A stretch of 64,000 bases of DNA from Escherichia coli. GTDB lineage: Bacteria > Pseudomonadota > Gammaproteobacteria > Enterobacterales > Enterobacteriaceae. Below the pieces are notes generated by a model, which searched no databases, had not been told where the DNA came from, and worked only from the letters and a program-made list of their open reading frames with translations. The stretch is from NCBI RefSeq assembly GCF_030013595.1, contig NZ_CP122768.1; one strand, 5' to 3'. Below, piece by piece: positions 27,349 through 61,035 of the stretch. Each line of letters starts with the position of its first letter. Positions within the stretch are counted from its first letter, which is position 1. The position numbers were made by a program, and so were the translations under genes.

Positions 27349-27629
27349 ATGTTTTCGGCACATTTCTCCCCAGAGTGTTATAATTGCGGTCGCAGAGTTG
27401 GTTACGCTCATTACCCCGCTGCCGATAAGGAATTTTTCGCGTCAGGTAACGCCCATCGTTTATCTCACCGCTCCCTTATACGTTGCGCTTTTGGTGCGGC
27501 TTAGCCGTGTGTTTTCGGAGTAATGTGCCGAACCTGTTTGTTGCGATTTAGCGCGCAAATCTTTACTTATTTACAGAACTTCGGCATTATCTTGCCGGTT
27601 CAAATTACGGTAGTGATACCCCAGAGGAT

Positions 27630-27851
<222 letters not shown>

Positions 27852-28104
27852 TTGTTTTACCGCCTGATGGGCGAAGAGAAAGAACGAGTAAAAGGTCGGT
27901 TTAACCGGCCTTTTTATTTTGTGATATGTATGAAGTACTTTGGAAGTATAAGTCCATAACTTGTCTCGATGTAGATATACTGCACAACTTGTTTACAGTA
28001 TGAGCAAACAATAATTATCATTAAAATTCTCCTTGACCGTTTTACTCCAACTCCCTATAGTAGCGCCCCGTTGCCACCCATGAGGTTTGGTAGCAAAACA
28101 ATTT

Positions 28105-28192
28105 GGTGAGGTGTCCGAGTGGCTGAAGGAGCACGCCTGGAAAGTGTGTATACGGCAACGTATCGGGGGTTCGAATCCCCCCCTCACCGCCA
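28105..28192 (+). tRNA. serW: tRNA-Ser (anticodon GGA), long variable arm, CCA encoded
   Basis: GGTGAGGTGTCCGAGTGGCTGAAGGAGCACGCCTGGAAAGTG...GGGGTTCGAATCCCCCCCTCACCGCCA; acceptor stem pairs, anticodon loop CTGGAAA. Confidence 0.9.
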
Positions 28193-28198
28193 GATTAT

Positions 28199-28233
28199 AA
28201 GCGCATGTTATTGTTTAACATGCGCTTTTTTAT
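28199..28233 (+). terminator. Hairpin terminator immediately after tRNA-Ser
   Basis: aagcgcatgtta...taacatgcgctt inverted repeat followed by T6. Confidence 0.65.
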
Positions 28234-28341
28234 TTATCCTTCCGGACAGTATGCCATCGGGTATGCCATCTGAAACCGGTTTATATGCCCCGCGATCATA
28301 TCTTATCGGACAATTTCCGATCTTTGAGCATACTGGCAAAG

Positions 28342-29184
28342 CTATACTGCCAGCATGTCAGGATAGTGTTTTGCGATAATATCATTCAGTCTGTCAACCA
28401 GTTCTGGTTTCCTGAACGTGATGTGTGCGGAGCCCTTCTTAAAGTATCTGATGCTGAACATCTCATCTTCATAGCTCTCTTTACCCTGAACAGACTGAAT
28501 GTGATCATCCAGACGAAGGGTGATGTTTCCCCGGTTGTCGGGGATTGGTTTGCCGCTGAACAGGTGCAGCATTCTTTCCAGGTCGGCAAGTCGATCTGCC
28601 TGTTGCCCGCTGTTCAGATGAAATCCCCACCGGTCCCATCTCACCAGATTGTTGACGATAATTTTATTACCAAATTTACAGGGGGAGTTGGTTTTGTAAT
28701 TCCAGCTCAACCCTCTGAAGACGTTGATCACCCCTCGCTCAAACACCTCATCCTTATTCTGGTGCAGTTGTTCAAATGTGCTCAGGATGTTCGCTTCGCT
28801 GATTTCCGGAAAATTATCGTACTCCAGTGACCGGTACCATGTATCACGGGCCTGCGCATCCATTAATGACAGCATCCCGGAACGTTGCATCAGGTCACGC
28901 CAGATTTCTCGATCGAGATTGCGGGTGATGGCTTTCATTGCTGCTTCCGGTTTTTCCATCAGCCAGCAGCCACAGCGAAAATCCTGTTTCATCGCCCAGT
29001 CCAGTGCGGTTTTACCGCCAATACTTTCTGTCATTGCTGAGATTTCAGCCAGTTGCCGGATAAGTGTGTCGATTTGCAGCAGCGTACTCTTTCGTACAGT
29101 CAGAATGTGGCGGATACTGGTTGAGCAGATAACGTCCGTATGCCCGTTGACCACTTCCGGACGGGAGGCTGTGATATCAGACAT
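28342..29184 (-). CDS. Island-associated hypothetical protein (280 aa), last gene of the toxin-antitoxin-distal module
   Basis: Long ORF with good coding look; no recognisable motif by eye. Confidence 0.5.
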   Translation of the reverse strand: MSDITASRPEVVNGHTDVICSTSIRHILTVRKSTLLQIDTLIRQLAEISAMTESIGGKTALDWAMKQDFRCGCWLMEKPEAAMKAITRNLDREIWRDLMQRSGMLSLMDAQARDTWYRSLEYDNFPEISEANILSTFEQLHQNKDEVFERGVINVFRGLSWNYKTNSPCKFGNKIIVNNLVRWDRWGFHLNSGQQADRLADLERMLHLFSGKPIPDNRGNITLRLDDHIQSVQGKESYEDEMFSIRYFKKGSAHITFRKPELVDRLNDIIAKHYPDMLAV

Positions 29185-29268
29185 AATCGATATTCCTTTT
29201 TGCAGATAAATGAAAACGCCAGCCCTGTTCAGGCTGGCGTCAGTGGAATGAAGTCTGGTGAGTAAGAC

Positions 29269-29466
29269 TCACTGGTTCTGTTGCAGAAACTGCAACTGGC
29301 GCAGGGTACGGATATCCTCCCTGGCCTGTTCAATGCAGGGCAGCAGTGCTGCCGAATCCGTTTTATCCTCATCGTTGTCAAAGATAATTCCCGATTCGCA
29401 GTCGATATTGTCCTGTAGCCACGCAATCAGAATATCCAGTGCGGTTTCCGTGGTTAATGATTTCAT
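29269..29466 (-). CDS. Small hypothetical protein (start may be 29511)
   Basis: ORF MKSLTTETALDILIAWLQDNIDCESGIIFDNDEDK...; overlaps stop of upstream gene. Confidence 0.35.
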   Translation of the reverse strand: MKSLTTETALDILIAWLQDNIDCESGIIFDNDEDKTDSAALLPCIEQAREDIRTLRQLQFLQQNQ

Positions 29467-29477
29467 GTTGTTCCTGG

Positions 29478-29966
29478 TTACCAGTCGAAAGTGGGCAGGT
29501 CCGGCAGACATTCAGCGCTGGCATCCAGATGAATGAGACTGACGCCATAACGTTGGATGAGTGTGACAACCAGACGACGGAACGTTTTTGACAGCCCCAG
29601 GCGCTTGAGCCGCAGAACCGGATATGACCACGCATCGGTACGTAACAGATATCCGCTACCTGTGAAATGAATCCATTCTGATTCACCGAAGTCACTGGTC
29701 TGGTGTGACAGCGAGTACAGCCAGGCGTTATCCTTTTCCGTGATATGTGCGGTACTGCAGCGTATGCCGGCAAGGGTTGCAAACGGTGGTAGTGTGCAGG
29801 TTGACTGTTGGTCGGATTCCTCCACCACGCGGAGTGAATAACCGTTTTCAGCGACCTTGTTAATCAGTTCAGTGAGATTAACACCATCGACGTCAGCGAC
29901 AATTCGCCCCATGTTCAGTGCCTGCACGTTAATGCTGTCGGCTTCCAGCGTCAGGGCCAGTTTCAT
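29478..29966 (-). CDS. Hypothetical protein immediately downstream of CbtA toxin (YeeW-position gene)
   Basis: 162-aa ORF, start overlaps cbtA stop by 4 bp (ATGA), indicating coupling. Confidence 0.45.
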   Translation of the reverse strand: MKLALTLEADSINVQALNMGRIVADVDGVNLTELINKVAENGYSLRVVEESDQQSTCTLPPFATLAGIRCSTAHITEKDNAWLYSLSHQTSDFGESEWIHFTGSGYLLRTDAWSYPVLRLKRLGLSKTFRRLVVTLIQRYGVSLIHLDASAECLPDLPTFDW

Positions 29967-30340
29967 TGTTTCGCCCCCGGATGTTTACCCAAGGTAATGT
30001 TATTTACCGTTCTGTAATTGTCGCGGGTCATCAGGCCTGTCGCCCGGCGGGCCCGGAGGATATCGATGCTGTTTATTAACTGAGAGTGGGTACAGGCGCT
30101 GAATCCCGGCTGGTCGGTACGCACCAGTGCGTATTTTTCCACGAGAAAGTTCACCGCATCACACAGTGAAATGCCAGCTTCAATATGCTGCTCAATCACA
30201 CGTTCATCGGCAAACGGTGTGTCATTCAGTGTGAGGCCGTAGTGCTGGTCCAGCAGTCGGGACAGCAGTATCTGCCAGATTTCAACAGGAGACGGGCGAG
30301 AACTGGCCGCCTGCCCGGGTAATACAGGTAATGTTTTCAT
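29963..30340 (-). CDS. cbtA: CbtA/YeeV/YkfI/YpjF-family toxin (type IV TA, cytoskeleton-binding)
   Basis: MKTLPVLPGQAASSRPSPVEIWQILLSRLLDQHYGLTLNDTPFADERVIEQHIEAGISLCDAVNFLVEKYALVRTD... near-identical to remembered K-12 YeeV. Confidence 0.8.
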   Translation of the reverse strand: MKTLPVLPGQAASSRPSPVEIWQILLSRLLDQHYGLTLNDTPFADERVIEQHIEAGISLCDAVNFLVEKYALVRTDQPGFSACTHSQLINSIDILRARRATGLMTRDNYRTVNNITLGKHPGAKQ

Positions 30341-30428
30341 ACTGAAGATTTTCCTGATATGCAGATATAAAAATGGGAAAGTGGCGTGGTGAAAACACCA
30401 GGCCGTAGCAGAAGGCTATTCTGGAGAG

Positions 30429-30797
30429 TTAATTTTTCATTTTGGGCGTCGGATAAACAGCCAGATAAACGTAACCACAACTGCTGAGGGTATCGGCTTT
30501 GCAGGTCAGCCCTCTGGCATACAGCGTGACGGTATGCTGATGGCGGGGATTCAGTTCACCGCTGGTGAGCATGAGCTCCAGTTGTTTCATCAGCAGCGGA
30601 AGGGCCTGGTCCAGGTGGTACGCATCCGCGTCGCTGAACCGGCCTCTGATACCGGCACGGTCGGCAAGGTAATGCAACCGGTTACCCTCCTGCACCAGAC
30701 GTGCCCCAAAACAGGGCGTCACGGTGCAGGGTAGCCCCCACCAGGGGCGGTCGTTGTTATCGTCGGGATAATTTGTTTCATGGAGTGAGTCTGACAC
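30429..30797 (-). CDS. cbeA: CbeA/YeeU/YafW/YfjZ-family antitoxin (GTG start with AAGGA RBS; ORF-track start at 30905 is over-extension)
   Basis: ...PDDNNDRPWWGLPCTVTPCFGARLVQEGNRLHYLADRAGIRGRFSDADAYHLDQALPLLMKQLELMLTSGELNPRHQHTVTLYARGLTCKADTL... Confidence 0.8.
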   Translation of the reverse strand: MSDSLHETNYPDDNNDRPWWGLPCTVTPCFGARLVQEGNRLHYLADRAGIRGRFSDADAYHLDQALPLLMKQLELMLTSGELNPRHQHTVTLYARGLTCKADTLSSCGYVYLAVYPTPKMKN

Positions 30798-30846
30798 GAT
30801 AAAATCCTTACAGAAAATCGGTGAATGATAGTTTAACGATGACGAG

Positions 30847-31494
30847 TCAGCCGGCGCGCAGACCGGCTTCGGTGAAGGTGTATTCGTTGATGAGAAGGGC
30901 CTCATCCACAGCGGCGTCTGAGGTCAGCCAGTCGTACTCGTTTTCCAGTTGACGGTACAACCAGAAGGCCAGGTCGCGCAGGGCTTCGCTGACTGCGGCT
31001 TCCGCATCGGTTGTCATAGCCTGACCAGTCGGACTGTTCCGGGTGACGGTGATATCCATGCTGTACGGATGGCAGTAACGTCCCCTGTGACTGATTTCAG
31101 CCTGCAACTGCCAGAAGTTACGTTTCTGCACCGCCTGCAGGGCATCCGTGATACGATGAAGCTCACGGTCCTGCGGGGCATATTCCCTGATTTTCCGGGG
31201 TGCCGCTGGCTGCCAGTGCCAGCGCCCTTCAAAACAGGCTCCGTCCCCCTGGCTGCAGAATCCGCTGAACCAGATGCACGGCTCTTCCATAAACCTGCCG
31301 TTGCTGAGCCGGAAAACGCGCTGGCGGAGGCTAATCCCGAAAATGTTACAGACCTCCCTGAAGTCTTCATACACGTTTTCATACCAGTTGCTGTTAGCAT
31401 GATACTGACGGTACCAGTCGCGGGCTTTTTCCCGTGCAGCAGGGCAGGAAAGTTCATCCAGCGTATACACAGTGGTGGTGATAATGCTGCTCAT
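30847..31494 (-). CDS. Hypothetical 215-aa protein inserted between yeeT-like and cbeA
   Basis: Clean ORF MSSIITTTVYTLDELSCPAAREKARDWYRQYHANSNWYENVYEDF...; not part of the canonical yeeS-yeeT-yeeU-yeeV order as I remember it. Confidence 0.5.
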   Translation of the reverse strand: MSSIITTTVYTLDELSCPAAREKARDWYRQYHANSNWYENVYEDFREVCNIFGISLRQRVFRLSNGRFMEEPCIWFSGFCSQGDGACFEGRWHWQPAAPRKIREYAPQDRELHRITDALQAVQKRNFWQLQAEISHRGRYCHPYSMDITVTRNSPTGQAMTTDAEAAVSEALRDLAFWLYRQLENEYDWLTSDAAVDEALLINEYTFTEAGLRAG

Positions 31495-31512
31495 CAGAAT
31501 CCCCTTTCTGAT

Positions 31513-31734
31513 TCAGTTCAGGGTGACGCTCATCAGCCGGACATACGGGCCAAAACTGTCCTTACGGCGTTCTGCAAACACAGCCAGCACACCGGGAATA
31601 TCCTGCACTTCACGACCGGTATACGCCTCAGCACTGCCGTGCCAGCGGTACTTACCGGTGCAGAACGGAAAAAGACGGGATGCCGGATGCTGACGGTGAA
31701 TGCGCATGGCTTCACCACGGGTGATAATTTTCAT
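31513..31734 (-). CDS. YeeT/YkfH/YpjJ-family protein (DUF987)
   Basis: 73 aa MKIITRGEAMRIHRQHPASRLFPFCTGKYRWHGSAEAYTGREVQDIPGVLAVFAERRKDS... Confidence 0.7.
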   Translation of the reverse strand: MKIITRGEAMRIHRQHPASRLFPFCTGKYRWHGSAEAYTGREVQDIPGVLAVFAERRKDSFGPYVRLMSVTLN

Positions 31735-31802
31735 AATGGGATACCTCTGAAGACAGAAGATAAAAGTGAAAACAGGTGTGATGTGGTTGTGACGGTGACG
31801 GG

Positions 31803-32294
31803 TTAAAGCAGACCGTGTTCGGCAAAGGAGAATACCTGGCTGCCACCGACTATCAGATGGTCCGGCACCCGGATATCCACCAGGCCCAGTGCCTGTACCA
31901 GACGTTCCGTGATAAGGCGGTCTGCCTTGCTGGGTGTGACTTCACCGGACGGGTGATTGTGTGCCAGTACCACAGCAGCGGCATTGTGATACAGGGCGCG
32001 TTTAATCACTTCCCGGGGATGGACTTCCGTGCGGTTGATGGTGCCGGTGAAGAGGGTTTCACCGGCAATCAACTGATTCTGGTTGTTCAGATACAGTACC
32101 CGGAACTCTTCCCGCTCCAGTCCTGCCATGTTCAGAATCAGCCATTCCCGTGCCGCATGCGTGGAGGTGAAGGCCACACCGGGTTCATGAAGATGGCGGT
32201 CCAGGGTTTTCAGGGCCCGCTGAATGAGGCTGCGCTCACCGGGCGTCATCTCTCCGGGCAGAAAGGAAAGCTGTTGCATTGTGCTTCTCTCCAT
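31803..32294 (-). CDS. RadC-like JAB/MPN-domain protein (YeeS/YkfG/YfjY family); start possibly at 32279
   Basis: JAMM motif HNHPSGE, ...LITERLVQALGLVDIRVPDHLIVGG... Confidence 0.8.
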   Translation of the reverse strand: MERSTMQQLSFLPGEMTPGERSLIQRALKTLDRHLHEPGVAFTSTHAAREWLILNMAGLEREEFRVLYLNNQNQLIAGETLFTGTINRTEVHPREVIKRALYHNAAAVVLAHNHPSGEVTPSKADRLITERLVQALGLVDIRVPDHLIVGGSQVFSFAEHGLL

Positions 32295-32780
32295 TCAGTC
32301 GATGATGCGCATAATGGCGCTGCATTCCGGATGCTGCAGGGCATAATCCCGCAGCCGGTAATAATGGACCGTCATGGCATAACACTCCGTACGACAGGCA
32401 TGATGACTGTACGTCATCAGACAGGCAGCAATGCCGGCGGCTTCCGGGCTCATTTCAGCGCGGTTACCGTTCATGACATTGAACAGTACCCATGTTTCGT
32501 CATCATCGTCATCCGGTTCGGGGGCCATAAATGCCCCGCCGTTGTTCAGGGTGTACAGATTCCAGATACCACCGCAGTAGTCTTCACACAGACGGTCCAT
32601 CCAGCCGAAGACACGGGGCTCCAGGGTCACCCACTGTGGAATAAGGCCAAAATGTTGCGGCCAGAAGCTGATGCGCTGTTCATCAGGGACGAGAGTAGCA
32701 ACCAGCTGAGGTGGGTTATTCCCTGATGCAGCGGTTACGGAAACAGAAGGTGTGGTGGAATTATGCGTAACGGTTGTCAT
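32295..32780 (-). CDS. Antirestriction protein (KlcA/ArdB-like; YafX/YfjX family)
   Basis: 161 aa with acidic stretch PEPDDDDDETW and conserved position next to radC-like gene. Confidence 0.7.
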   Translation of the reverse strand: MTTVTHNSTTPSVSVTAASGNNPPQLVATLVPDEQRISFWPQHFGLIPQWVTLEPRVFGWMDRLCEDYCGGIWNLYTLNNGGAFMAPEPDDDDDETWVLFNVMNGNRAEMSPEAAGIAACLMTYSHHACRTECYAMTVHYYRLRDYALQHPECSAIMRIID

Positions 32781-32871
32781 GAGATTATTCCTTATAAAAA
32801 GTAAATGAATGGAAGAATGTCCGGAGGCAGGGACGGAAGTGAGTCAGGACTGCGCTTTCAGGGAAAAGGCA

Positions 32872-33690
32872 TCAGCGCATGCTCTCCAGCAGCGTTTCTG
32901 CCATCACCCACAATGCGCGATTGAGCTTAATGTCGGTGTCGATGCTGTGAATGGCCCGGGTGTGGATACGTTTTCCTCTGGCACTGCGACCGGAAATTCC
33001 GCCTTTCAGCATATTCTCCTGGATGGTCTGATATGCGCTCCACAGGTCCTTGCCGTAATCCTCCCTGCGTCGTGGTGTCAGAATGTCAGCAGTGGTGACG
33101 GGCTGATGTTCGTCACCATAACGGTAAGTCAGTGCCGCCTGCGCCAGTGCCTGGCGTGCCGGTGGCGGCAGGACCAGCGACTGCATGGCATCACGTTTCT
33201 CCTCAATCCGGTCAAACACGCCCACCACTTCGTAAGCCCCTTCAATAACTTTCTCCACCACGTTTCCCCGGTGCGGAACACGCACTTCCCCCAGAGACTG
33301 ACCACAGACGCAGCCGTTCTGGCAGACGAATCTGAAGTAACCCGGCAGCATCTGGTAGCTGGAGGTACCGTCATGGGAGTTGAGCAGAATAATTTCAGGG
33401 ACATGTTGTCCGGTTATCTCCCCGTCACGCCGCAGACGCAGCATGTGTTTTGTGTATTCCCGGCGACCCGGGTCACGCACACGTGTCTGGCAGGCGAAGA
33501 ATGGCTGAAAGCCTTCCCGCTGCAGACTTTCCAGTACGGTGATGGTGGGAATGTACGCATAGCGTTCACTGCGGGAGGTATGCCGGTCTTCTCCAAAAAT
33601 ACTGGGAACATAGTGCATCAGCTCTTCATGTGTCAGTGGACGTTCACGGCGTATCTGGTTTGTATAACCAAAACGACTGGCTAATCGCAT
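32872..33690 (-). CDS. DUF932-family protein (YafZ/YfjQ-like)
   Basis: 272 aa; family assignment from remembered similarity to CP4 prophage proteins. Confidence 0.65.
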   Translation of the reverse strand: MRLASRFGYTNQIRRERPLTHEELMHYVPSIFGEDRHTSRSERYAYIPTITVLESLQREGFQPFFACQTRVRDPGRREYTKHMLRLRRDGEITGQHVPEIILLNSHDGTSSYQMLPGYFRFVCQNGCVCGQSLGEVRVPHRGNVVEKVIEGAYEVVGVFDRIEEKRDAMQSLVLPPPARQALAQAALTYRYGDEHQPVTTADILTPRRREDYGKDLWSAYQTIQENMLKGGISGRSARGKRIHTRAIHSIDTDIKLNRALWVMAETLLESMR

Positions 33691-34100
33691 AATTGCTCCT
33701 TATGAATGATTAAGCGGTATAAATGAAAAAACCGCGTCTCCCGGAGAAGACGCGGCCTGATGGGTGAAATGAATGAGGTTTATTGTCCGGGAAGCCCTTC
33801 ACTGGTGAGCCACGCATTAAGTTGTTTGCCTGCATAGGGTTCAGAATTCCGGCAGCGCCAGCGTCGCTGACCTTCCGCGTTGCGGATAATCCGCCGGAAA
33901 TGCATTCCTGGATAAACACATTGCGGTAAGCTGTTATGACAGCAACTGTCTGTTTGCGTGAGAAAGGATCTTCGGAAAATAAAAGTAATGTACAGCCCGT
34001 CATGTATTTTCAGGTAAAAATAAAGCCCCTGCCATTATGGCAGAGGATTTATTTACATTTGATATTAATAACGCGCAGATAAGATACTATAATTCATACA

Positions 34101-34514
34101 TTAAATTTTGATTTCGTCAAGCCCGACAATCTTATGAATCGTATTGTCGTAAAGTTTAACGCCCGGTTTACCGTTTTTTAGGGTAACGAAACCGGCGGTG
34201 ATGTTGCCTTCACAACTTTGATTGTTGTTGTATTTGATGGTCTGGGCTTTACCGGTATAGAAATTAATTACGCCGTATAAACCATCCCAGCACGCTGTAC
34301 CCCCCATGGCGTGTACCAGACCGTATTGCATGTCTTTGGATGTGCCCAGGTATTCACAACCTCCGTCGATAGTATCAGTACCCTGACACCAGAATTCTGT
34401 ACCGTCAGTAACGTCAGTCAGGTTGGTCGGTAAAGGAACGGCATTGTTTGCTGATACATTAGCAGTAAAGAAACTGATAACTGCAATCATTAAAATAGTG
34501 ATGATATTTTTCAT
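34101..34514 (-). CDS. Small secreted cysteine-containing protein (signal peptide), function unknown
   Basis: MKNIITILMIAVISFFTANVSA signal, 4 Cys in mature part, terminator hairpin downstream (34021..34050). Confidence 0.5.
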   Translation of the reverse strand: MKNIITILMIAVISFFTANVSANNAVPLPTNLTDVTDGTEFWCQGTDTIDGGCEYLGTSKDMQYGLVHAMGGTACWDGLYGVINFYTGKAQTIKYNNNQSCEGNITAGFVTLKNGKPGVKLYDNTIHKIVGLDEIKI

Positions 34515-34783
34515 GATAAATACTCCATTGTTTCTGATGTTAAATAAAAGTATAAAAACTGTTTCTGCAATACTTATAATCCACTCGAGAGGTCAGGATT
34601 AACCCCCGACTTGTTTATTAAACACATACCTGAAGATATGACCTTCAACATGGTGATATATTTATACTATGTTTCTGACTGTCTCCTGAATCAAATAAAA
34701 TATATCCGTTCCATGATGAACATCATTTACCTGTTAAGAACACTAATAACCTGATTATTTAGCAAACTCTGCGAGAAAGAATA

Positions 34784-35323
34784 TCAGATCGTAAATAACA
34801 CCAGTATCAGCATAACCAGCCAGACCCAGAAATAAGCAGGTTTTTGCCCGAGGATCTTTGCCCGACGCCACAGATAAACCGGGATCAGCCATGCCAGCCA
34901 GCCAAATGCTGTGGTATCAACACCAGATTTACGGAGTTTTCGTTCATCCAGATATCCCAGAGCAATATTCAGAATCAGAGAGATAAACCAGTACTGGCCT
35001 TCGCTGACTGCATCATAAGCCCGTTCAAATGACATACCGTTCAGCCCGGCAGTCCACATCTCAAGTATGTACCCAATCAAAGGGGCAAATGCCAGCGTCC
35101 AGACAACGTCTCCGGGAATGCGGTGACCCGGAAGGGCCGGAGGAACTTCACTTTGTTTCAGTATTTCCGCCAGTGATGTGGCTGAAACTGGCTGCCATTC
35201 CAGCATGCCCTGTTGCCACACCAGTGTTGATGCATTCAGTTCACCACGCCGGATACGTTCGATAATATCTTCCTCTGTTACGTTATCATAACGTACACCA
35301 TTTTTTTCATAATGCCAGTTCAT
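34784..35323 (-). CDS. Membrane protein with soluble N-terminal domain, function unknown
   Basis: 179 aa, hydrophilic N-terminus (MNWHYEKNGVRYDNVTEEDIIERIRRGEL...) then 3-4 hydrophobic segments. Confidence 0.5.
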   Translation of the reverse strand: MNWHYEKNGVRYDNVTEEDIIERIRRGELNASTLVWQQGMLEWQPVSATSLAEILKQSEVPPALPGHRIPGDVVWTLAFAPLIGYILEMWTAGLNGMSFERAYDAVSEGQYWFISLILNIALGYLDERKLRKSGVDTTAFGWLAWLIPVYLWRRAKILGQKPAYFWVWLVMLILVLFTI

Positions 35324-35439
35324 CTGATTCTCCTGTTAATCATTCAGTTAATAAAACATGTGACATCCAAAACAAAAATATTTTTATGATATTCATTTTC
35401 ACTCACTGTATTAAATTAAACTGAGGTGTTTTACACCAC

Positions 35440-35905
35440 GTTATCAATTATTCCTGGAACCAGGTGTTCCAGCAGCTACCGTAGAATTTGTTACCCAAAG
35501 TCTTTTTCTCATTTTTGATATTTGCGGTATAGCTGTCGACTTTCTTACCGTTTACTAAAACGTCGAGCTTCGTGGCTTCACCGATAGCATCGATAAAGTA
35601 TACCCACGCATTCTTATTCATTCGTGTTCCGTCGACAGGTGGGGCCGAATACTTTTTACCGTTGATGATAAAAATAATATCAGAATCGTACTGATTTAGC
35701 GGGGTGGGGGTATGACCGTAAATCCACTCATATGTGGTAGCAAATTGTTGTCTTCTGGATTAATCGTGCAGTTAATAGAAACACTACCGACACTGAACAT
35801 ATCGGTGCCAGCAACACTGTTACGCTTCTACAATGCCGATTCTGCTTGTGCTACGGTTGTACTTACAGTTAAAACAACAGCTAAAAGAATGTTTAACAGT
35901 TTCAT
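35440..35905 (-). pseudogene. Disrupted gene for a small secreted protein (in-frame TAG after residue 25, then frameshift at G5TG5 tract)
   Basis: ATG at 35905 gives MKLLNILLAVVLTVSTTVAQAESAL*; downstream frames continue ...SVGSVSINCTINPEDNNLLPHMSGF... and ...YDSDIIFIINGKKYSAPPVDGTRMNKNAWVYFIDAIGEATKLDVLVNGKKVDSYT...SCWNTWFQE*. Confidence 0.35.
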
Positions 35906-36036
35906 GAGATTTCTCCCCAAAATTAAATAAATTAATCTTAACCATCATCCGGGTAATATATATCTGAAAATATTTTCAATAACACCAGATAAGAAAAACA
36001 CCACCACAGTGGCGGTGGCGTTTCTCCGGTGTGTCT

Positions 36037-37107
36037 TTATTTAATCCGGGCCATCGCGTTTCTCAGTGCCGAATCTGCACCTTCAGTTATCTCCTGGCTT
36101 TTCTGTAATACCGCCTCTGACCGGGTCAGTGCCTGACGCGCCGCCAGTGGTTTCCGGATATGCTCCATCGTCAGCATCGTGTCCTCGTAGCCCTGCTGAC
36201 GCCAGGCGTCGATATGTGCCGACGTGAAACTGAGCAGACCGCCACTGTTGCCACCATCACCTGCATGTTTCAGCCTTTTCCGGGGACGGATTTCAAGGAT
36301 TGTGGTGTCCGGAAAAGCCCGACGATCCCATAAAGAACCGTCACTCAGATGCGTCACAATCACCATATTGCATCCGGCATCCACCAGTGGCGTCACGGGA
36401 GTATTCCCCTGCCTGTTTCGCCATCCGCCCATCCCACCATCACCGTACATTGTTCCCTGAACCTCGCGGGGACGGAACAGCAGAGGCAGCGCGGCTGACG
36501 CCAGTAAAGCTTCTTTCTGCTGCCCGCGGGGCAGACTCTGGATATGCTGAAAAACGGCGTTTTTCGTGGTTCCGGCACCCAGTTCAGCACGAATGCAGTC
36601 AATAATATCCTGCATGCCTCCTTCTGTGGGGTACAGCGACACGTACAGCGGTAGCCCGTCAGCCAGAGCATCTGTATCAAGATAATGATCCATCAGCGCT
36701 GTCAGGGGCTCATCTGACAACAGCGGCTGAATCATCGGATTGTCGAACCCGTTGATTGTCGATATATGGCGAAAAAGCGTCGTAAGCAGTGCGCCCGCAC
36801 GTCCGGGGATCTGGCAGAGGTTCATGGCCTGAACCAGTTTTTTCAGCAATGAAAAGTAAACCGATCTGTTTACCGACAGAACCTGATTATTCCCCAGATG
36901 ATCCCAGAGCGCCTCCAGGCGTAAGGTGGCTTCTGACAGATCGGGAGAGGCCGCGATAATGGCACCATTGAGAGCCCCGATACTGGCTCCTGAGACCATA
37001 CTGATCTGTGCGCCGCACTCTGCCAGTGCCTTAACCACCCCCGCCTGATAAGCGCCCACCGCTCCGCCGCCGGACAGCACCAGCCCCGTTTGCATTTCTG
37101 TACTCAT
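36037..37107 (-). CDS. Patatin-like phospholipase
   Basis: GGGAVGAYQAG oxyanion motif, GASIG serine-lipase motif (GxSxG), YGDGG Asp motif; start overlaps upstream gene stop by 4 bp. Confidence 0.8.
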   Translation of the reverse strand: MSTEMQTGLVLSGGGAVGAYQAGVVKALAECGAQISMVSGASIGALNGAIIAASPDLSEATLRLEALWDHLGNNQVLSVNRSVYFSLLKKLVQAMNLCQIPGRAGALLTTLFRHISTINGFDNPMIQPLLSDEPLTALMDHYLDTDALADGLPLYVSLYPTEGGMQDIIDCIRAELGAGTTKNAVFQHIQSLPRGQQKEALLASAALPLLFRPREVQGTMYGDGGMGGWRNRQGNTPVTPLVDAGCNMVIVTHLSDGSLWDRRAFPDTTILEIRPRKRLKHAGDGGNSGGLLSFTSAHIDAWRQQGYEDTMLTMEHIRKPLAARQALTRSEAVLQKSQEITEGADSALRNAMARIK

Positions 37108-38009
37108 GCCTCTCCCTTCTGAAATATTTCATCAACCATACTTTCAGAGAGGCGTTCTGCAGAGCAGAGACGGGGCATACGAACCGGTAAGTGTTCTGCA
37201 GCCTGCGTGGTTGACCAGATCACAGGATGCCGCTCTTCACTGCACCAGTCCCCCAGCCAGTTAACCGCTTCATGCCATTCGTTATCAGCCTGTTCCCGGC
37301 GCTGACCACCAAGCCAGTCCAGTGTGTTCAGACGTACTGTTGCGCTACCGCCACTCTCCCGTGCCATCTGCGTTAATGCTTTATATCTGAGAATATCCAG
37401 TAACTGATTAACCTGGCCTGTTTCACCCTGACGAATCACATCACCAAACGCGCCCCAGCGAAGCTCTTCAAGCGCCACATAACAACGTCCGGCAGGGGAA
37501 AATGACGCGTATCGCCCGGCGCTCCACCACGAGAATATCTGCTCAAGATGTAACTGTGCCCGCTGAACCTGGTCAACACGGTGGAGTTTTTCCTCAAGAT
37601 GATTCAGTTTCTGATGAACCTGTTCTGCCAGAGTGAGTAACTGCTCCCGCGTGTCAGCCGAATAATGCGCCAGCCTGGCAGTATCACTGACCAGTGAACT
37701 GACCCTGTCGTTTACCCGGGTAATCGCGTAGTTTGTGGTGGCAAGTGACGTTGTCAGCTCCGTCAGCCAGCGCAGGGACGCCTCAACGCCCTGTGCAAGC
37801 GACGCATTGATGGCATTCTGCCGTGCAGCGCCTTCGCCGGTCAGCCCCTCTTTTAAACGCCGGAAGAACGTGCGCTCTCCGGCCGTGCGGATATGCTCCT
37901 GTGCAACATCGATTCCGTTTGCGAAATCAACCACAAATTTTTCAGGAAGACAGGTGAGTACCTGACATACCCGGTTATCAGCAATTTGTTGAATAAATGG
38001 TGAAGTCAC
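37104..38009 (-). CDS. Hypothetical protein (301 aa) between dynamin-like GTPase and patatin genes
   Basis: ORF overlaps both neighbours by 4 bp (ATGA), implying a coupled operon; no motif recognised. Confidence 0.6.
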   Translation of the reverse strand: MTSPFIQQIADNRVCQVLTCLPEKFVVDFANGIDVAQEHIRTAGERTFFRRLKEGLTGEGAARQNAINASLAQGVEASLRWLTELTTSLATTNYAITRVNDRVSSLVSDTARLAHYSADTREQLLTLAEQVHQKLNHLEEKLHRVDQVQRAQLHLEQIFSWWSAGRYASFSPAGRCYVALEELRWGAFGDVIRQGETGQVNQLLDILRYKALTQMARESGGSATVRLNTLDWLGGQRREQADNEWHEAVNWLGDWCSEERHPVIWSTTQAAEHLPVRMPRLCSAERLSESMVDEIFQKGEA

Positions 38010-40393
38010 AGCATTGTCTCCAGCTCTTCCCTCAGCGCCTTACTGTCAGTAATGAGCTCAGGAACCCTTTCATTTAATGCCTGAAGTCGCCCGGTAAGCC
38101 GTTCCTGCGCCTGCTGATCGCGTTTATGATCTTCAGAGCTCTGAATCAGCGTGTTACGCAGTTGTTCAACTTTCTCCCTGAATGCGCAGAAAAAGGCATC
38201 GATTTCCTGGCGGACGGGCTGGTTAATATCCTGCTCAATGGATGCCTGCAGCTCCCCGAAATATGCCCGGGTCAGTGACATAACTTCCTCTCTGGCCTTG
38301 TTGATATTGATCACGCTGCGACTCACATCCTCGTCATAGTTTTCCCAGCCCAGGTCACTGGTGCCAAACCATCGACAAACGGTTCCCCATACGCCACTCT
38401 GCCGACGGCGACGGGTGACGGTCTCCGTTCTTTCCTCCATAAGCGCACTCAGATTTATTTTTACCGCGAGCCGGGTCTGTAACTGGCTGACTGCCGGAAA
38501 ACTGATTTTTACGGTAAAGCCCTCATCCTCCAGGCGGGCATTGATGCGACCGGCAATGTTTTCTGTGGCGTACAGGGCCGTGCCACGAAAACCTGTTTCA
38601 ATCCCGCTGACGATTTTCTCCAGCTCAGGCCGGAACTGTGCTTCAGCCTCACGGTGCAGGCTGGTCACGGTCGATTCGATTTGCGTCATCAGTTCAAGGG
38701 CTGCCCTGCGATCACTGAATTTTATTTCGGGGCTGTCCGGATCAAAGTCCCGCATCCTGTCATGCTGATTTCCGGTTCCGAAAATATCGTGAAAGAAAGC
38801 GAATGCGTTTCTCTCCCGGGGCTGCGCTGAATTTTCTTCCTCCAGCATTTGCTGTTCTTTGCGTTTACCGCTTCTGAAATAGTCGTTCAGCTCCTCCTCC
38901 AGTGAGGCACAGACCTTCGTCAGTAATTCCCCGGTTTTGGTATTGATGTCCTCCATGGCCATTCTGACATCACCGGTCACCTGATTCTGACATTCCTCAA
39001 TCTCCTGGATATCCGCCAGCAGGCTGGTAATATGCGCCTGTAGTGACTGAATGCTTTGCTGCAGCCCCTGATGACGTAATGACAGATATTCGCTGACATT
39101 TTCTGCATTCTGCATCAGTTTTGCGGCGGCAGAGTCAACCGCCAGTGCCGCCGCTCTGGAATGGGAGCTCTGTATGACTTCCGTTATCAGTTGATCGATC
39201 AGAGATATATTCCAGAGTTTTTCTGCCTTTTTATTTACCTTAGTGCTGTCTTTCCAGTCGTCCTCTTCCACCATAGGTCCGAAAGCTTCCCTGATAAAAT
39301 CATCGACCCAGGCTTCATCAACCGGAAGCGCACCGTTTTTTCGTAACTCATGAAGCGCACGGTTAGCCAGGTACGCCTGACGTGATGAGCCGGGATAAAC
39401 GCGGGAGGCGGGCAGCACATCGCTGTTCAGCATTGCTGGCACCTTCTGGCGTACGGCATCCGCACCATCACCATTGCGATCTTTTTCATCGAATTTATTG
39501 ACCAGCACAAACAGACGACCGGCTGAGACGTCAGCAATGGCATTAAGCTCTTTACGAACCTCCTCATCGGCTTTCGAGTTCATCTGGGTGTAATCCATCA
39601 CCGCCAGCACCGCAGAGGCTTTCTGTAGTTGATCCCGCATCATCATTTCCATCTGTGGTTGTCCGGCTTCATTAGGGCCGGGGGTATCCAGCAGTGTGAG
39701 TGTTCCCTGACATGCATCCATTCCCACCAGGTGGCTGAACGCCACGTCGATCACCGGTAGTTTCTGCACTTCTGCGTATTCGTCAAAAGGAAATTCAGTC
39801 CCCATTGCCGCAGCAAGACGAACCAGGTCATTTAACGATGCCAGTCCGGTAAAGATTTCGTCTTCCCCGTGGTATTCATTTTTAAGCCAGACATCATCCG
39901 CCAGAATATCCAGTAGTTCGCGGGTATCCCCGGTTTGCTGCAGGGACTGTGCGACTTGCTGCCCTGCCGGGGTGGCGAGTTTTTCCTGCAGTGTGATTAA
40001 TAAATTGCGGACGGGCTGAATATGTTCCAGATGGAGGACCGGTTCCGTTTTTCCGGGAACGTGGCGGATCAATGTCGGTACCGAGGTCATGGGGCGGTTA
40101 CGGTTGGGCAGAATTTCCTGCCCCACAATGGCGTTGATGGTGGTTGATTTGCCCGCCTTCATCGTGCCGACCACAGCCAGCACCATCTCCCTGCGGGCGG
40201 TTTTGATTTGTTCGCCCTCCAGCTCCTCAATTCTTTTCAGCGCTTTCCGTTTATCAAAAAGCAGCCCGTTTTCGTTCTTACTGTCAGATAACACATCCGG
40301 CTCATCAACCATTTGCCGGAGCAGATTGATATTCAGTTGCAAAAGCCGGTCGGCTTCATCACAAAGCAGGGCGATGTTCTTTTCGTGCATCAT
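38006..40393 (-). CDS. Dynamin-family large GTPase (bacterial dynamin-like protein)
   Basis: 795 aa; N-terminal G-domain with P-loop GTMKAGKSTTINAIVG, DTPG-like G3 (LLDTPGPNE), long coiled-coil-like C-terminal region. Confidence 0.75.
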   Translation of the reverse strand: MMHEKNIALLCDEADRLLQLNINLLRQMVDEPDVLSDSKNENGLLFDKRKALKRIEELEGEQIKTARREMVLAVVGTMKAGKSTTINAIVGQEILPNRNRPMTSVPTLIRHVPGKTEPVLHLEHIQPVRNLLITLQEKLATPAGQQVAQSLQQTGDTRELLDILADDVWLKNEYHGEDEIFTGLASLNDLVRLAAAMGTEFPFDEYAEVQKLPVIDVAFSHLVGMDACQGTLTLLDTPGPNEAGQPQMEMMMRDQLQKASAVLAVMDYTQMNSKADEEVRKELNAIADVSAGRLFVLVNKFDEKDRNGDGADAVRQKVPAMLNSDVLPASRVYPGSSRQAYLANRALHELRKNGALPVDEAWVDDFIREAFGPMVEEDDWKDSTKVNKKAEKLWNISLIDQLITEVIQSSHSRAAALAVDSAAAKLMQNAENVSEYLSLRHQGLQQSIQSLQAHITSLLADIQEIEECQNQVTGDVRMAMEDINTKTGELLTKVCASLEEELNDYFRSGKRKEQQMLEEENSAQPRERNAFAFFHDIFGTGNQHDRMRDFDPDSPEIKFSDRRAALELMTQIESTVTSLHREAEAQFRPELEKIVSGIETGFRGTALYATENIAGRINARLEDEGFTVKISFPAVSQLQTRLAVKINLSALMEERTETVTRRRRQSGVWGTVCRWFGTSDLGWENYDEDVSRSVININKAREEVMSLTRAYFGELQASIEQDINQPVRQEIDAFFCAFREKVEQLRNTLIQSSEDHKRDQQAQERLTGRLQALNERVPELITDSKALREELETML

Positions 40394-40500
40394 TCACCTT
40401 TATAAATTCAATAATTCAGAACTGCGGTGAACAGCAATGAGCGTCCTTTCCCATTACTGCATGAATTTTCCTGAAATCGTATTTCCGGGATACCGTATAA

Positions 40501-43350
40501 TCAGAAAGTCATATTCAGCGTAGCCTGACCGTTATAGCCTTCAGCGCTGCTGCCGCTGACGCTGTGGGCATAACCGGCCTGAACGCCCAGGGTGATATTT
40601 TCCCGGATACGGGCTTCCAGTCCGGCCTGCAGGTCCAGTGACGTGCCATTCCGGGACGGTGAGAACGTCATGTTACTGCCGGCTGCGGCTGTCCCCATGC
40701 TCATGTCACCCCGGGAGCTGAAGGTGCGGATAACAGAAGGCTGTACCCACCAGTTCACCGGCAGTTCACTCACACTGTGTTTTGCACTGTCGCGCAGGGT
40801 GTCACGGGATGAGGTGCCTTCACCAAAGGTCATATCGTTGTGGCTGCCCAGACGGAAACCGGCACGCACATGTTGTGCACTGCCATGCCCGAACTTCACA
40901 TAACCGGCGTTATCCTGGCCGTCATCCAGGGAGAGTCCCTGCCAGGTGTACTGCAGTTGTGGCTCCAGCATCAGATTGTCAGTGATACTGAAGGGCAGAC
41001 CGGTTTCCAGTGAGCCCAGCCAGCCCCAGCCCCGGGCGCGGAAGTCGTTATTGTCCGATGACGCTTTCATGCTGTGACGGGTTCCCTGGGCCACAATGTC
41101 AGCCCACAGGCCGGAGGATGTGTGTACCAGATTCAGGTATCCGCCCAGACTGCCGGCATCATCCCGGACCGTGCCGGCGCGGGAACCGTCATCATCCTTA
41201 ACATCAACGGAAGAATGGCCTGCAGCACCATACACCCCTGTCGTCAGAGACATACCGGCAACCTCTGTTCTGAGCAGGTCACCCTCCAGACGGACGAAGC
41301 CATAGCTGCCGCTGCTTTCCGGCGTGGCTCCACGGGCAATACCGCCGTTGTTATCGTGACCGAGATGACCGCCCTGAATGCTGAGACGGACGCTGTTATT
41401 TTCACCGTTTACACCGGTCTGATGGCTGCGGGAGCCTGCCAGAATCCGGTCATAGTCCATTGCCTGTGTCAACATGGATGTATACAGGGGGACTTCAGCA
41501 CGATAAGCATTTTCACTGCGCAGGTACCAGTCTTCATCGCTGTCACGGTTCAGGGTGTAGTTAAAGGCGCCGGCCTGAAGCGGGCGACTCAGGGCAAACG
41601 CACCTTCTTCTGTGGTGGCGCCATTCTGTGCATCCACAACCCGGATACCCTGTCCGGTGGTTGCCACCCCGAGGTTGCTGTTTCCGACATTTGTAAACGC
41701 AAGCCAGGTTTTGCCGGTTGCCTGACCACCATTAATCACCAGCTGGTCAGAGGCATTGCTGCCATCAAGGCGAACACGCATATTGATGGTGCCGCCCTGG
41801 CCGGTGAGGTTCGTGGTGGTCAGTTTATGGAACGTTACCGGGGAGTTACTTTTTGCAACAGCACGGCTCAGCGCGGCATTCGGTGTCGTCTGATTATCAA
41901 AGCGAATCTCCCCTGCGTTAACAATATCGCCGGTACTGACCACATCACCATTCAGTACCATACTGGCGCCTTTACTGAGCTGTGTTCTGCCACTCAGACT
42001 TCCCCCGGCAGCCAGCGTCAGTGTTCCACGATGTCCGACAGTGGTGTTGCCAGCCTGTCCCCCGGCATTAACCGTAAAGCTGCCGCCATTTTCCAGCAGC
42101 AGGCCGCTGGCCTGACCGGATGTGCCATCAATACTGAACTTACCGCTGGCATTGGTCCCCTCAACAGTGGCACCACTGTCTGCAATCAGGGCACCACCGG
42201 ATGTTATGGTGACACTTGTCGCCTTACCGCCGGCAGACACTGCCAGGGTACCGCCGTCATCCACTAGGGTATTCTGTGCTGAATGGCTCTCCAGTACATC
42301 CAGACGACCGCCGGATTCCAGAACAACACCGTCAGCCTTACCGTTTTCCACCGTGAAATTCCCCAGACGGTTTGTGCCGATGACAGTTGCAGCAGTACTG
42401 GTAACCAGTGCACCGCCCGTGTTCTGGGTGACTGCAGTGGCTTCCCCGCCGGCATGTACCCTCAGTTCACCGTTCTGATTTATGGTGGTGTTACCGGCAG
42501 CGCCACCTGCCTTAACAACCTGCCAGCCCCCCTCGTTAATTACCGTGTTCAGCGCAAGTCCGTCCCTGTGCACATACTGGTAACCGCCATTCAGTGTGGT
42601 ATTCAGGGCCCTTCCGTGTACCGACTGGTCACCACCTGCGTAAATGAGAGTGTCACGGGCTAGCCCGGAAAATAAGATAATCTGCCGTCCATTTTTGTTG
42701 ATGGTGGTGGATTCTGCTGTTCCCTGGACCTTCTGACCCGTATACGAGTTGTCAGAATCAGGGCCGCCTTCTGCGCCGGTGTTGATGATGGTTCCTGTTG
42801 CCAGCCCGCCACTTTTAACGCTCTGGTAACCGTCGCGGTTGATAATTGTACCGGTGGCAACCCCGCCCTCATGCACCCACTGCTCGCCTCTGTTATTCAG
42901 TGTGGTGTTCACCGCCAGTCCGTTCAGGCTCTGTCCCCCGCCGTCACGAATAACCGTATCACTGGCTGTTCCCCCCTCCAGCACGACCTGACGACCATTT
43001 GTGGTGACAGTGGTGTTTCCGGCTATCCCGCCATTCTGTATCCATTGCCCACCGGTGTTTTCTTCACTGTCCGGCCCCAGTTCCAGCCCGGTACTGATGG
43101 TCATTCCGTTGGCCGTACCGAAGACAATCTGGTTGTCATGATTTGTCAGTGTTCCATCGTTCACGGTTTCTCCCGCCTGTACAACCTTGTCAGCAGCCAG
43201 TGCCGGGACTGATGTGACAGCAGCAAGAGACAGCGCAACCGCCACACCGGCGCGTTTTCCCCGTGAGCGGGCCAGTTCGGAAGCCACCACCAGGGTGCCC
43301 GTAATGTGATTCCATACCAGCCTGTAGCTGGTGTTCAGATGTCGTTTCAT
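40501..43350 (-). CDS. flu: Antigen 43-type self-associating autotransporter adhesin (AIDA-I family)
   Basis: Extended signal peptide MKRHLNTSYRLVWNHITGTLVVASELA..., Gly/Thr-rich beta-helical repeats, C-terminal beta-barrel ending ...QATLNMTF. Confidence 0.85.
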   Translation of the reverse strand: MKRHLNTSYRLVWNHITGTLVVASELARSRGKRAGVAVALSLAAVTSVPALAADKVVQAGETVNDGTLTNHDNQIVFGTANGMTISTGLELGPDSEENTGGQWIQNGGIAGNTTVTTNGRQVVLEGGTASDTVIRDGGGQSLNGLAVNTTLNNRGEQWVHEGGVATGTIINRDGYQSVKSGGLATGTIINTGAEGGPDSDNSYTGQKVQGTAESTTINKNGRQIILFSGLARDTLIYAGGDQSVHGRALNTTLNGGYQYVHRDGLALNTVINEGGWQVVKAGGAAGNTTINQNGELRVHAGGEATAVTQNTGGALVTSTAATVIGTNRLGNFTVENGKADGVVLESGGRLDVLESHSAQNTLVDDGGTLAVSAGGKATSVTITSGGALIADSGATVEGTNASGKFSIDGTSGQASGLLLENGGSFTVNAGGQAGNTTVGHRGTLTLAAGGSLSGRTQLSKGASMVLNGDVVSTGDIVNAGEIRFDNQTTPNAALSRAVAKSNSPVTFHKLTTTNLTGQGGTINMRVRLDGSNASDQLVINGGQATGKTWLAFTNVGNSNLGVATTGQGIRVVDAQNGATTEEGAFALSRPLQAGAFNYTLNRDSDEDWYLRSENAYRAEVPLYTSMLTQAMDYDRILAGSRSHQTGVNGENNSVRLSIQGGHLGHDNNGGIARGATPESSGSYGFVRLEGDLLRTEVAGMSLTTGVYGAAGHSSVDVKDDDGSRAGTVRDDAGSLGGYLNLVHTSSGLWADIVAQGTRHSMKASSDNNDFRARGWGWLGSLETGLPFSITDNLMLEPQLQYTWQGLSLDDGQDNAGYVKFGHGSAQHVRAGFRLGSHNDMTFGEGTSSRDTLRDSAKHSVSELPVNWWVQPSVIRTFSSRGDMSMGTAAAGSNMTFSPSRNGTSLDLQAGLEARIRENITLGVQAGYAHSVSGSSAEGYNGQATLNMTF

Positions 43351-43567
43351 CAGCTTTTCCTTACAGAGTGTGAATAAAAAAGCCGGTACCCACAAAAGTG
43401 GATACCGGCAGGTACAAAACAGCATGGTCAGATAAAGTGGTTTTTCCCGGACATAAATGCTTCCCCTCTCTCATCCGCCAGAGAAGTATCAGTCCGTTGT
43501 GTGCAATTCCGTTATGCATGATGAAGAGATTCAGCTGCCTTTTCGCAGACCATTAACCACTATAAAC

Positions 43568-43603
43568 GATCGATGGAAACGATCGATACCTGTTTTATCG
43601 ATC
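43568..43603. promoter_or_regulatory. Three closely spaced GATC sites upstream of Ag43 gene (Dam/OxyR phase-variation switch candidate)
   Basis: aacGATCgatggaaacGATCgatacctgttttatcGATCg; agn43 phase variation is known to use three GATC sites in the OxyR operator. Confidence 0.55.
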
Positions 43604-43721
43604 GTTTTATTCTATTAACAGCAAGGCAGTCACGCAAGAGAAAGAGGTGGATATGAGGGGGGTGTATCATGTTTTCAGTTGGTTAACGCAATGTAATCAG
43701 GCATTTCCCCTGGCAGACTGT

Positions 43722-44594
43722 TCAGAAGAAAATCCAGTTCCATACAGCGCGGGCAACAGAGACCACCGTGTCACGGACGGCACGCAGAACTGTGCGTGCA
43801 ACAGAGGCAACACAGACGCTCTCCACCGTGTCAAATATCCGGTCCACCGCACCGGTAAACTGTTCACGGGCCTGCCCCCGGACAGATTCCGTGCACAGCT
43901 CGTCCTGCAGGCGGGTCATCAGGGGACTGGCGGCATGGTCGGGAAGCGCTGTCATGAGCGCACTGACCAGCGTATCCAGTTCCCAGCCGGTACGGGCCGA
44001 TACGGCAACAACCGGATGTACGGGCCGGAACAGCCGGAATACCGCATCTGTTTTTTCGCGAATGTTCTGTTCCTGTGCGGGAGAAGGCTGAATACCTGCC
44101 ATATCCCATTCATGGCAGGGCTCTGTTTTGTCGGCCTGCGTCACCACAAACAGCACCTGCTGATGTCCCCGGTGCAGTATGTGTCGCCAGAAATACTCAT
44201 CCACAGACAGGGCACGGTCATCGGCTTTAATCAGCCACAGCACCAGGTCCAGTTCAGGCAGAATGTCACGGTACAGGGCTTCATACTCTGCATCCCTGTC
44301 CCGGCTCTCGCCCACCCCGGGCAGGTCAGTGATAACCATGCTGTGACCATGGCCACTCAGACGGAAGCGCCGCACTTCCCGGGTGCCGGCGTGAACATCA
44401 CTGACCGGGGTGACCTCCCCCTGAAACAGTGCATTACAGAGTGAGGATTTACCGGCCCCGCTTTTACCCATAATGCCAATCACGGGTTCGTGACTGGTGA
44501 GTTTGCGCAGATGTTCCAGGATGTGACGGGAAAGCGAGTAAGGCAGGGAGGAGAGCGGTTTTTCAATTGCCTCAATGGCATCAGACGGATTCAT
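43722..44594 (-). CDS. YeeP/YkfA/YfjP-family GTPase
   Basis: P-loop GIMGKSGAGKSSLCNALF; conserved position upstream of Ag43 gene as in CP4-44. Confidence 0.75.
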   Translation of the reverse strand: MNPSDAIEAIEKPLSSLPYSLSRHILEHLRKLTSHEPVIGIMGKSGAGKSSLCNALFQGEVTPVSDVHAGTREVRRFRLSGHGHSMVITDLPGVGESRDRDAEYEALYRDILPELDLVLWLIKADDRALSVDEYFWRHILHRGHQQVLFVVTQADKTEPCHEWDMAGIQPSPAQEQNIREKTDAVFRLFRPVHPVVAVSARTGWELDTLVSALMTALPDHAASPLMTRLQDELCTESVRGQAREQFTGAVDRIFDTVESVCVASVARTVLRAVRDTVVSVARAVWNWIFF

Positions 44595-44820
44595 ACATGT
44601 ATTCCCGGTGAAAAAAGACAAAACCCCGCGCACCGGAAAGGTGGCGGGGGATTCACAACGATAATATCTGTCTGAAATTATTTAGGATGCAGGTATCTTC
44701 TGATAATCATACATCCCGAATTTTGTTCTTAATAGGTAACCGTCTCATTTAAACCGTCTTTCGCCTCCCTTTCCTGTTTCCGATACTAATGTCCATTTTC
44801 GCAGTAAAGGGACATTTAAG

Positions 44821-45471: not shown

Positions 45472-45818
45472 TGATATCTCTCCCTGCCGGTTCGCGTATC
45501 TGGCTGGTTGCCGGTATCACCGATATGCGAAATGGCTTTAACGGCCTGGCCTCAAAAGTTCAGAACGTCCTGAAGGATGACCCGTTCTCCGGGCATCTGT
45601 TCATCTTCCGCGGACGCCGGGGTGACCAGATAAAAGTGCTGTGGGCTGACAGTGACGGACTGTGCCTCTTCACCAAACGCCTGGAGCGGGGCCGCTTCGT
45701 CTGGCCGGTCACCCGCGATGGAAAGGTTCACCTTACTCCGGCTCAGTTGTCCATGCTTCTCGAAGGCATCGACTGGAAGCACCCGAAACGAACGGAACGC
45801 GCTGGCATCCGCATATAA
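45471..45818 (+). CDS. IS66-family accessory protein TnpB (Orf2)
   Basis: MISLPAGSRIWLVAGITDMRNGFNGLASKVQNVLKDDPFSGHLFIFRGRRGDQIKVLWAD... typical IS66 Orf2. Confidence 0.8.
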   Translation: MISLPAGSRIWLVAGITDMRNGFNGLASKVQNVLKDDPFSGHLFIFRGRRGDQIKVLWADSDGLCLFTKRLERGRFVWPVTRDGKVHLTPAQLSMLLEGIDWKHPKRTERAGIRI

Positions 45819-45837
45819 CCCGTTGTAAAGTGAGGAT

Positions 45838-48378: not shown

Positions 48379-48431
48379 ACTTAGATGTCCGTCTATATCA
48401 GATGGGCGTCTAAGTTACCAATTTTCGTCTG

Positions 48432-50021: not shown

Positions 50022-50041
50022 TAATACCTGTTACCTGAATA

Positions 50042-61034: not shown

Positions 61035-61035
61035 G

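Follow-up and report, generated by a model that had tools for sequence, protein, structure and literature searches.

The window is a stretch of 64,000 nucleotides (nt) of Escherichia coli DNA (RefSeq assembly GCF_030013595.1, contig NZ_CP122768.1). Positions 29478-30797, on the minus strand, very probably encode an intact CP4-44-type pair of CbeA (YeeU) antitoxin and CbtA (YeeV) toxin, together with a translationally coupled, full-length DUF5983 gene, at the end of a CP4-like genomic island at serW. CbtA/CbeA is the case on which the type IV class of toxin-antitoxin systems was founded. The span is made up of exactly the antitoxin, toxin, and DUF5983 genes, and the three open reading frames (ORFs) lie on the minus strand at the coordinates given in a preliminary description of this DNA. 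The antitoxin gene is directly upstream of the toxin gene on the same strand. The features of the span are as follows.

30805..30809, minus strand: Shine-Dalgarno sequence AAGGA, 7 nt upstream of the antitoxin GTG (direct sequence reading)
30797-30429, minus strand: gene for a YeeU/CbeA-family type IV antitoxin, 122 amino acids (aa), GTG start (Pfam PF06154; Prokaryotic Genome Annotation Pipeline (PGAP) WP_001285114.1)
30341..30428, minus strand: antitoxin-toxin spacer, 88 nt (window coordinates)
30340-29963, minus strand: cbtA (yeeV) toxin gene, 125 aa (Pfam PF06755; PGAP cbtA WP_000854808.1)
29966-29478, minus strand: DUF5983 family gene, 162 aa (Pfam; PGAP WP_000761657.1)

All three products belong to defined protein families. 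The antitoxin matches CbeA_antitoxin (PF06154) with E=2.5e-52 over model positions 1-100 of 101, and the toxin matches CbtA_toxin (PF06755) with E=7.7e-58 over positions 1-112 of 112. The 162-aa protein contains a DUF5983_N domain (PF25638, E=3.9e-29) and the DUF5983 C-terminal domain (PF19419, E=9.4e-22). Given these Pfam E-values, the three genes are not chance ORFs. Residues 1-122 of the antitoxin also match the sequence of the YeeU crystal structure, PDB 2H28 (E=5.7e-76). A PDB sequence search with CbtA gave no significant match, and the module proteins had no hits in NCBIfam or PADLOC scans.

The closest relative of the pair is CbtA/CbeA of the K-12 CP4-44 prophage (YeeV/YeeU, b2005/b2004), which has the same families, gene order, and strand. 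In protein alignments, the toxin is identical to K-12 CbtA at 121 of 124 positions (97.6%), being one residue longer with 3 substitutions, and the antitoxin is identical to K-12 CbeA at 111 of 122 (91.0%). Most of the 11 antitoxin substitutions lie in the N-terminal tail (residues 4-15). The spacer is also 88 nt in K-12, where cbeA ends at 3481 and cbtA starts at 3570 of locus L002. K-12 shares the GTG start with its ribosome-binding context and the 4-nt downstream overlap. The two loci differ in location, as the window island is at serW and the K-12 pair is at the CP4-44 site.

K-12 encodes two further pairs of the same Pfam families, YkfI/YafW (CP4-6) and YpjF/YfjZ (CP4-57), in the same antirestriction/RadC/DUF987 neighborhood. 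These are only 57-63% identical (57.5-63.3%) to the window pair. Their antitoxins, YafW and YfjZ, are 105 aa long and lack the N-terminal tail, and neither ykfI nor ypjF is followed by a DUF5983 gene. Because the identities to the CP4-44 pair are 97.6% and 91.0%, against 57-63% for the others, the window pair is of the CP4-44 type. The preliminary description had assigned the proteins to YeeV/YeeU, and the full-length Pfam matches and the nearest pair bear this out. It had also proposed an alignment with K-12 YeeU, YeeV, and YeeW as a check; this was run and revealed no divergence from the CbtA/CbeA family. Its wording "near-identical" holds for the toxin and is slightly generous for the antitoxin.

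The K-12 proteins provide a model of how the pair may act. CbtA binds FtsZ and MreB directly and independently and blocks both division and elongation (PMC5624674). Substitutions of R15 and F65 abolish CbtA binding to MreB and FtsZ, respectively (PMC5624674), and the window toxin keeps both residues. By the account of Masuda 2012 cited in PMC5371832, CbeA does not bind CbtA; it binds and bundles FtsZ and MreB polymers, the property that defines type IV. By homology to K-12, the window CbtA would bind FtsZ and MreB, inhibit their polymerization with arrest of growth, block division and elongation, and give rise to lemon-shaped cells. The window CbeA would, on the same grounds, neutralize the toxin by bundling FtsZ and MreB polymers rather than by sequestering CbtA.

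The translation start of the antitoxin is supported by five lines of evidence as GTG 30797. First, K-12 cbeA is annotated at the same GTG, and the upstream context, TTTTCTGTAAGGATTTTATCGTG, is identical. Second, the GTG and, at a spacing of 7 nt before it, a RAGGA motif occur without exception in the eight loci compared, namely the window, K-12, and six diverse E. coli genomes. In three of these, the frame is closed by a stop codon 27 nt before the GTG and no further start codon lies between the two, which excludes any longer antitoxin form there. Third, blastn homology to K-12 starts at window position 30821, only 24 nt upstream of the GTG. Fourth, the rival ATG at 30905 falls within the upstream 215-aa gene and lacks a Shine-Dalgarno sequence. 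Fifth, RefSeq/PGAP uses GTG 30797 in DNA identical to the window (coding sequence WP_001285114.1). In every genome examined, the PGAP coding sequence starts at this GTG and is 369 nt (122 aa) long, or 375 nt (124 aa) in locus L014. The preference of the preliminary description for this GTG, with its good ribosome-binding site, over the upstream ATG of the longer ORF is thus sustained.

That longer ORF would start at ATG 30905 and yield a 158-aa antitoxin. The frame is open from this codon, ATG is the commoner start codon, and the same upstream ATG is present in four of the eight loci. The codon lies, however, 59 nt inside the upstream 215-aa gene, and the bases before it, GCCGCTGTGG, do not form a Shine-Dalgarno sequence. 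The in-frame stop in three loci, the K-12 homology limit at 30821, and the PGAP starts all speak against the longer form, and the Pfam domain and the crystallized protein both suit the 122-aa form. A 158-aa product is very improbable and was rejected on the missing Shine-Dalgarno sequence, the K-12 homology limit, and the eight-locus comparison.

The DUF5983 gene is joined to cbtA by an overlap of 4 nt. The cbtA stop and the DUF5983 ATG share ATGA (GGCGAAACAATGAAACTG), so the overlap noted in the preliminary description can be read directly in the sequence. The same ATGA overlap is found between K-12 cbtA and yeeW, and a 4-nt overlap is present in four other loci. K-12 YeeW (b2006) thus has the same position and the same coupling to cbtA as the window DUF5983 gene.

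K-12 yeeW is what a deletion left of the DUF5983 gene, which the window carries intact. K-12 YeeW (64 aa) is identical to the window protein at 40 of 62 positions (64.5%), over the N-terminal domain only (residues 4 to ~60), and lacks the DUF5983 C-terminal domain. By blastn, K-12 DNA matches window positions 30821-29821 (93.7%) and then 29351-29186 (81%). K-12 has no equivalent of 29820-29352, which comprises the C-terminal domain of DUF5983 and the 5' part of the adjoining gene labeled DUF957, of which K-12 keeps only the 3' part. Because of this deletion, a global MAFFT alignment with K-12 is misleading downstream of cbtA, and blastn was used instead. The suggestion that the 162-aa ORF may be a full-length version of the yeeW-position gene was therefore well founded. 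The window gene is complete, with both domains, as is common in E. coli. K-12, EC24, and 730V1 combine an intact cbtA with a truncated DUF5983.

DUF5983 is a real protein under purifying selection. In pairwise comparisons of five loci, the ratio of nonsynonymous to synonymous substitution rates (dN/dS) is 0.18-0.33 for DUF5983, similar to the toxin-antitoxin genes. The ratio for cbtA is 0.09-0.39. For the antitoxin it is 0.08-0.63, and below 0.35 except in one nearly identical pair.

The AlphaFold2 model of DUF5983 has a mean predicted local distance difference test score of 86, with ~95 in the C-terminal domain, a weaker N-terminal domain, and a disordered linker at residues 51-56. An alignment of relatives reveals conserved motifs in the C-terminal domain: CSTAHIT..DN, in which H74 and D79 are near-invariant, EWIH.TG.GYL.R, and a terminal FDW. 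Among 1.84 billion cluster representatives searched, only 216 were related to DUF5983, many of them fragmentary. No solved structural relative of DUF5983 was found, a PDB sequence search also gave no significant match, and a PHROGs scan of the module proteins returned only families of unknown function.

Some relatives of DUF5983 occur away from the toxin. In a 290-kb record (L006, 4001-4567), a C-terminal domain with a different N-terminus lies beside DUF932 and IncFII RepA genes, with no cbtA nearby. A metagenome contig (L010, 852-1421) likewise has the C-terminal domain with a different N-terminus, beside DUF932, NikA, and relaxase genes and with no cbtA nearby. Distant proteins with this domain are also found in phages. 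One apparent relative, P0151, comes from a Logan contig of SRR18740011 (L009) that was discarded as an apparently C-to-T converted, bisulfite-like assembly of the same module. The call is based on its translated ORFs, in which V, L, F, and I are very abundant. The predicted proteins of this contig, such as P0151, enter the 50%-identity library as spurious "divergent" relatives.

The coupling to cbtA raises the question of whether the pair is a three-component system, with DUF5983 modulating CbtA, whether as another antitoxin, as a chaperone or adaptor, or as a sensor able to free the toxin. The ATGA overlap in the window, K-12, and the four other loci fits such a role, as do purifying selection comparable to that on the toxin-antitoxin genes and a confidently predicted fold with near-invariant H74 and D79 in CSTAHIT..DN. 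In a survey of E. coli toxin-antitoxin systems, DUF5983 is also listed as the constant "partner" downstream of CbtA for every sequence type but ST11 (PMC10790755). Yet K-12 lacks the C-terminal domain, and the literature, as cited for that strain, has CbeA alone neutralizing CbtA there. Other genomes keep cbtA with a truncated DUF5983, and the K-12 paralogues ykfI and ypjF have no such neighbor. Distant C-terminal domain proteins occur without cbtA, beside plasmid-type replication and transfer genes and in phages, and no structural relative points to an activity. A three-component system is therefore unlikely.

A bolder version holds that full-length DUF5983 works as a third partner of CbtA/CbeA, since lost from K-12, and may be a modulator or trigger that ties the toxin to a signal such as phage infection or island transfer. 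This is more doubtful still; if it were true, the K-12 "type IV" work would have been done on an incomplete module. Because DUF5983 relatives occur without cbtA and CbeA alone is sufficient in K-12, an obligate antitoxin role is unlikely, and DUF5983 is probably not an obligate toxin-antitoxin partner. Most likely, the gene is an accessory one of the island, expressed together with cbtA, and does not encode a required antitoxin.

Several points weigh against the reading of the span as a CP4-44-type pair with a coupled accessory gene. The toxicity, the action on FtsZ and MreB, and an antitoxin that does not bind its toxin are all transferred from K-12 on the strength of homology. The 11 differences from K-12 CbeA, mostly in the N-terminal tail, may affect the antitoxin. 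The ATGA coupling, kept in four other loci, leaves room for a functional link between DUF5983 and cbtA. Finally, a promoter scan found no convincing promoter for the pair and no sigma-70-like one directly upstream.

The span is part of an uninterrupted gene string on the minus strand from 28342 to 33690, as seen from ORFs, Pfam, and PGAP. The genes are separated by short gaps, and terminator-like hairpins at 33758-33729 and 29241-29215 flank the string. The remaining features around the span are as follows.

33690-32872, minus strand: DUF932 gene
32780-32295, minus strand: antirestriction gene
32294/32279-31803, minus strand: RadC/JAB gene
31734-31513, minus strand: DUF987 gene
31494-30847, minus strand: 215-aa gene (ORF; no Pfam match)
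29466-29269, minus strand: 65-aa gene, PGAP label "DUF957" (coding sequence WP_000839248.1)
29241-29215, minus strand: terminator-like hairpin, 11-bp stem then T-run (consensus scan)
29184-28342, minus strand: DUF4942 gene
28105-28192, plus strand: tRNA-Ser(GGA) serW, at the end of the gene string, after cydC-aat-infA

The DUF957 gene is the last gene before the hairpin at 29241-29215. Its start lies 11 nt beyond the end of the DUF5983 gene and is served by a separate AGGA ribosome-binding site. Its dN/dS of 0.16-0.34 indicates purifying selection, and its 65-aa product has no match in current Pfam-A. The hairpin sequence (29215-29241) is conserved in K-12 downstream of yeeW, within the 81% block at window 29351-29186, and likely marks where the transcription unit ends. 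The AntiFam "spurious" family ANF00264, located beside DUF5983 and cbtA, is a real protein, perhaps made with a frameshift, according to a 2026 preprint (10.64898/2026.06.09.728211). Should ANF00264 be the 65-aa gene, no frameshift is needed here.

The 215-aa gene lies between the DUF987 gene and the antitoxin, and at its 3' end it overlaps the stretch by which the antitoxin ORF is spuriously extended at the 5' side. It is absent from K-12 CP4-44, which has 73 nt at this place. The PGAP name here is "hypothetical protein"; in other places it is "antitoxin of toxin-antitoxin stability system". Its product matches PHROG 5162 (E=2.6e-35), and a PDB sequence search with it gave no significant match. 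Loci L011-L014, which lack the gene, keep ~150 nt of its 3' end (~90% identity) within about 162 nt upstream of the antitoxin. This retained remnant suggests that the gene was lost by deletion in the loci without it. Elsewhere, a small deletion fuses the 215-aa ORF in frame to YeeU (L016, 955-1986; P0273-P0295), giving predicted proteins of 342-343 aa.

The start codon of the RadC/JAB gene (31803-32294, minus strand) is ambiguous too and is the second such case within the operon. The PGAP coding sequence is 477 nt and starts at 32279; the longest ORF reaches up to a start at 32294, directly adjoining the antirestriction stop. An Rfam scan of 27500-34500 returned only the tRNA and sub-threshold noise, with no family in the 88-nt spacer.

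The content of the string allows another view of the pair, as part of the "establishment" set of a transferable island that acts on entry into a new host and is not primarily an addiction or stress module. DUF932, antirestriction, RadC, DUF987, the 215-aa gene, CbeA, CbtA, DUF5983, DUF957, and DUF4942 lie on one strand between hairpins, and DUF932 and DUF5983 C-terminal domain genes lie beside a relaxase gene on the metagenome contig. Moreover, a screen with a Cre reporter detected translocation of CbeA, YagB, and YfjZ via the F type IV secretion system (PMC11288057), though the transfer frequencies were low, at 10^-7 to 10^-5. Beside the module, the window shows no identified transfer genes, and the view is compatible with the toxin-antitoxin reading rather than exclusive of it. 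As an account of what the pair primarily does, it is possible but improbable. It is speculation that the string from DUF932 to DUF4942 is such a set, into which translocation of CbeA, YagB, and YfjZ would fit.

The CP4-44-type pair and its DUF5983 gene were already known at this locus. Identical DNA is present in RefSeq genomes of porcine enterotoxigenic E. coli (ETEC), annotated with exactly these genes. UMNK88 (NC_017641.1, 1275713-1277241) and ETEC1747 (NZ_CP122722.1) have 100% DNA identity to window positions 29200-31000 and share five gene calls: WP_001285114.1, WP_000854808.1, WP_000761657.1, WP_000839248.1, and WP_001280436.1. The preliminary description is correct throughout, and the sole correction is one of emphasis, in that all of it is already in reference annotations.

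The arrangement is widespread. A 1.8-kb query spanning antitoxin, toxin, DUF5983, and DUF957 was compared with 5,426 complete E. coli genomes, and 3,668 have a place covering at least 80% of it. Genomes with any match have a median of three matching places. The intact DUF5983 form is the norm in E. coli, and K-12-like truncations also occur elsewhere. The widely studied K-12 module is thus a truncated version of the common arrangement antitoxin-toxin-DUF5983-DUF957. For working out the roles of DUF5983 and DUF957, the window offers no advantage over thousands of other E. coli genomes.

A CP4-like genomic island is inserted at serW, and the module lies at its end nearest the tRNA gene. The island end abuts serW, on the infA side, in the window and ETEC1747; the best-matching copy in UMNK88 abuts serX, on the ghrA side (L001, 8809-8896). 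These copies show 100% identity between the antitoxin region and the DUF957 gene, and the same DUF4942 protein is annotated in each. As the identical end is found at serW and at serX, the island uses either tRNA-Ser(GGA) gene. The 3' end of the tRNA is faced by the toxin-antitoxin end of the island and not by an integrase gene. Upstream cargo of the island (window ~34000-49300, from the annotation of L005) includes a patatin-like phospholipase, RdcB-family and dynamin-family proteins, a Cah/Ag43-like autotransporter, a YeeP-like GTPase, and IS66 copies. Window positions 49000-64000 match a stretch of the same ETEC genomes that carries, among others, AAA-domain, PAPS reductase-like, and IS1 transposase genes.
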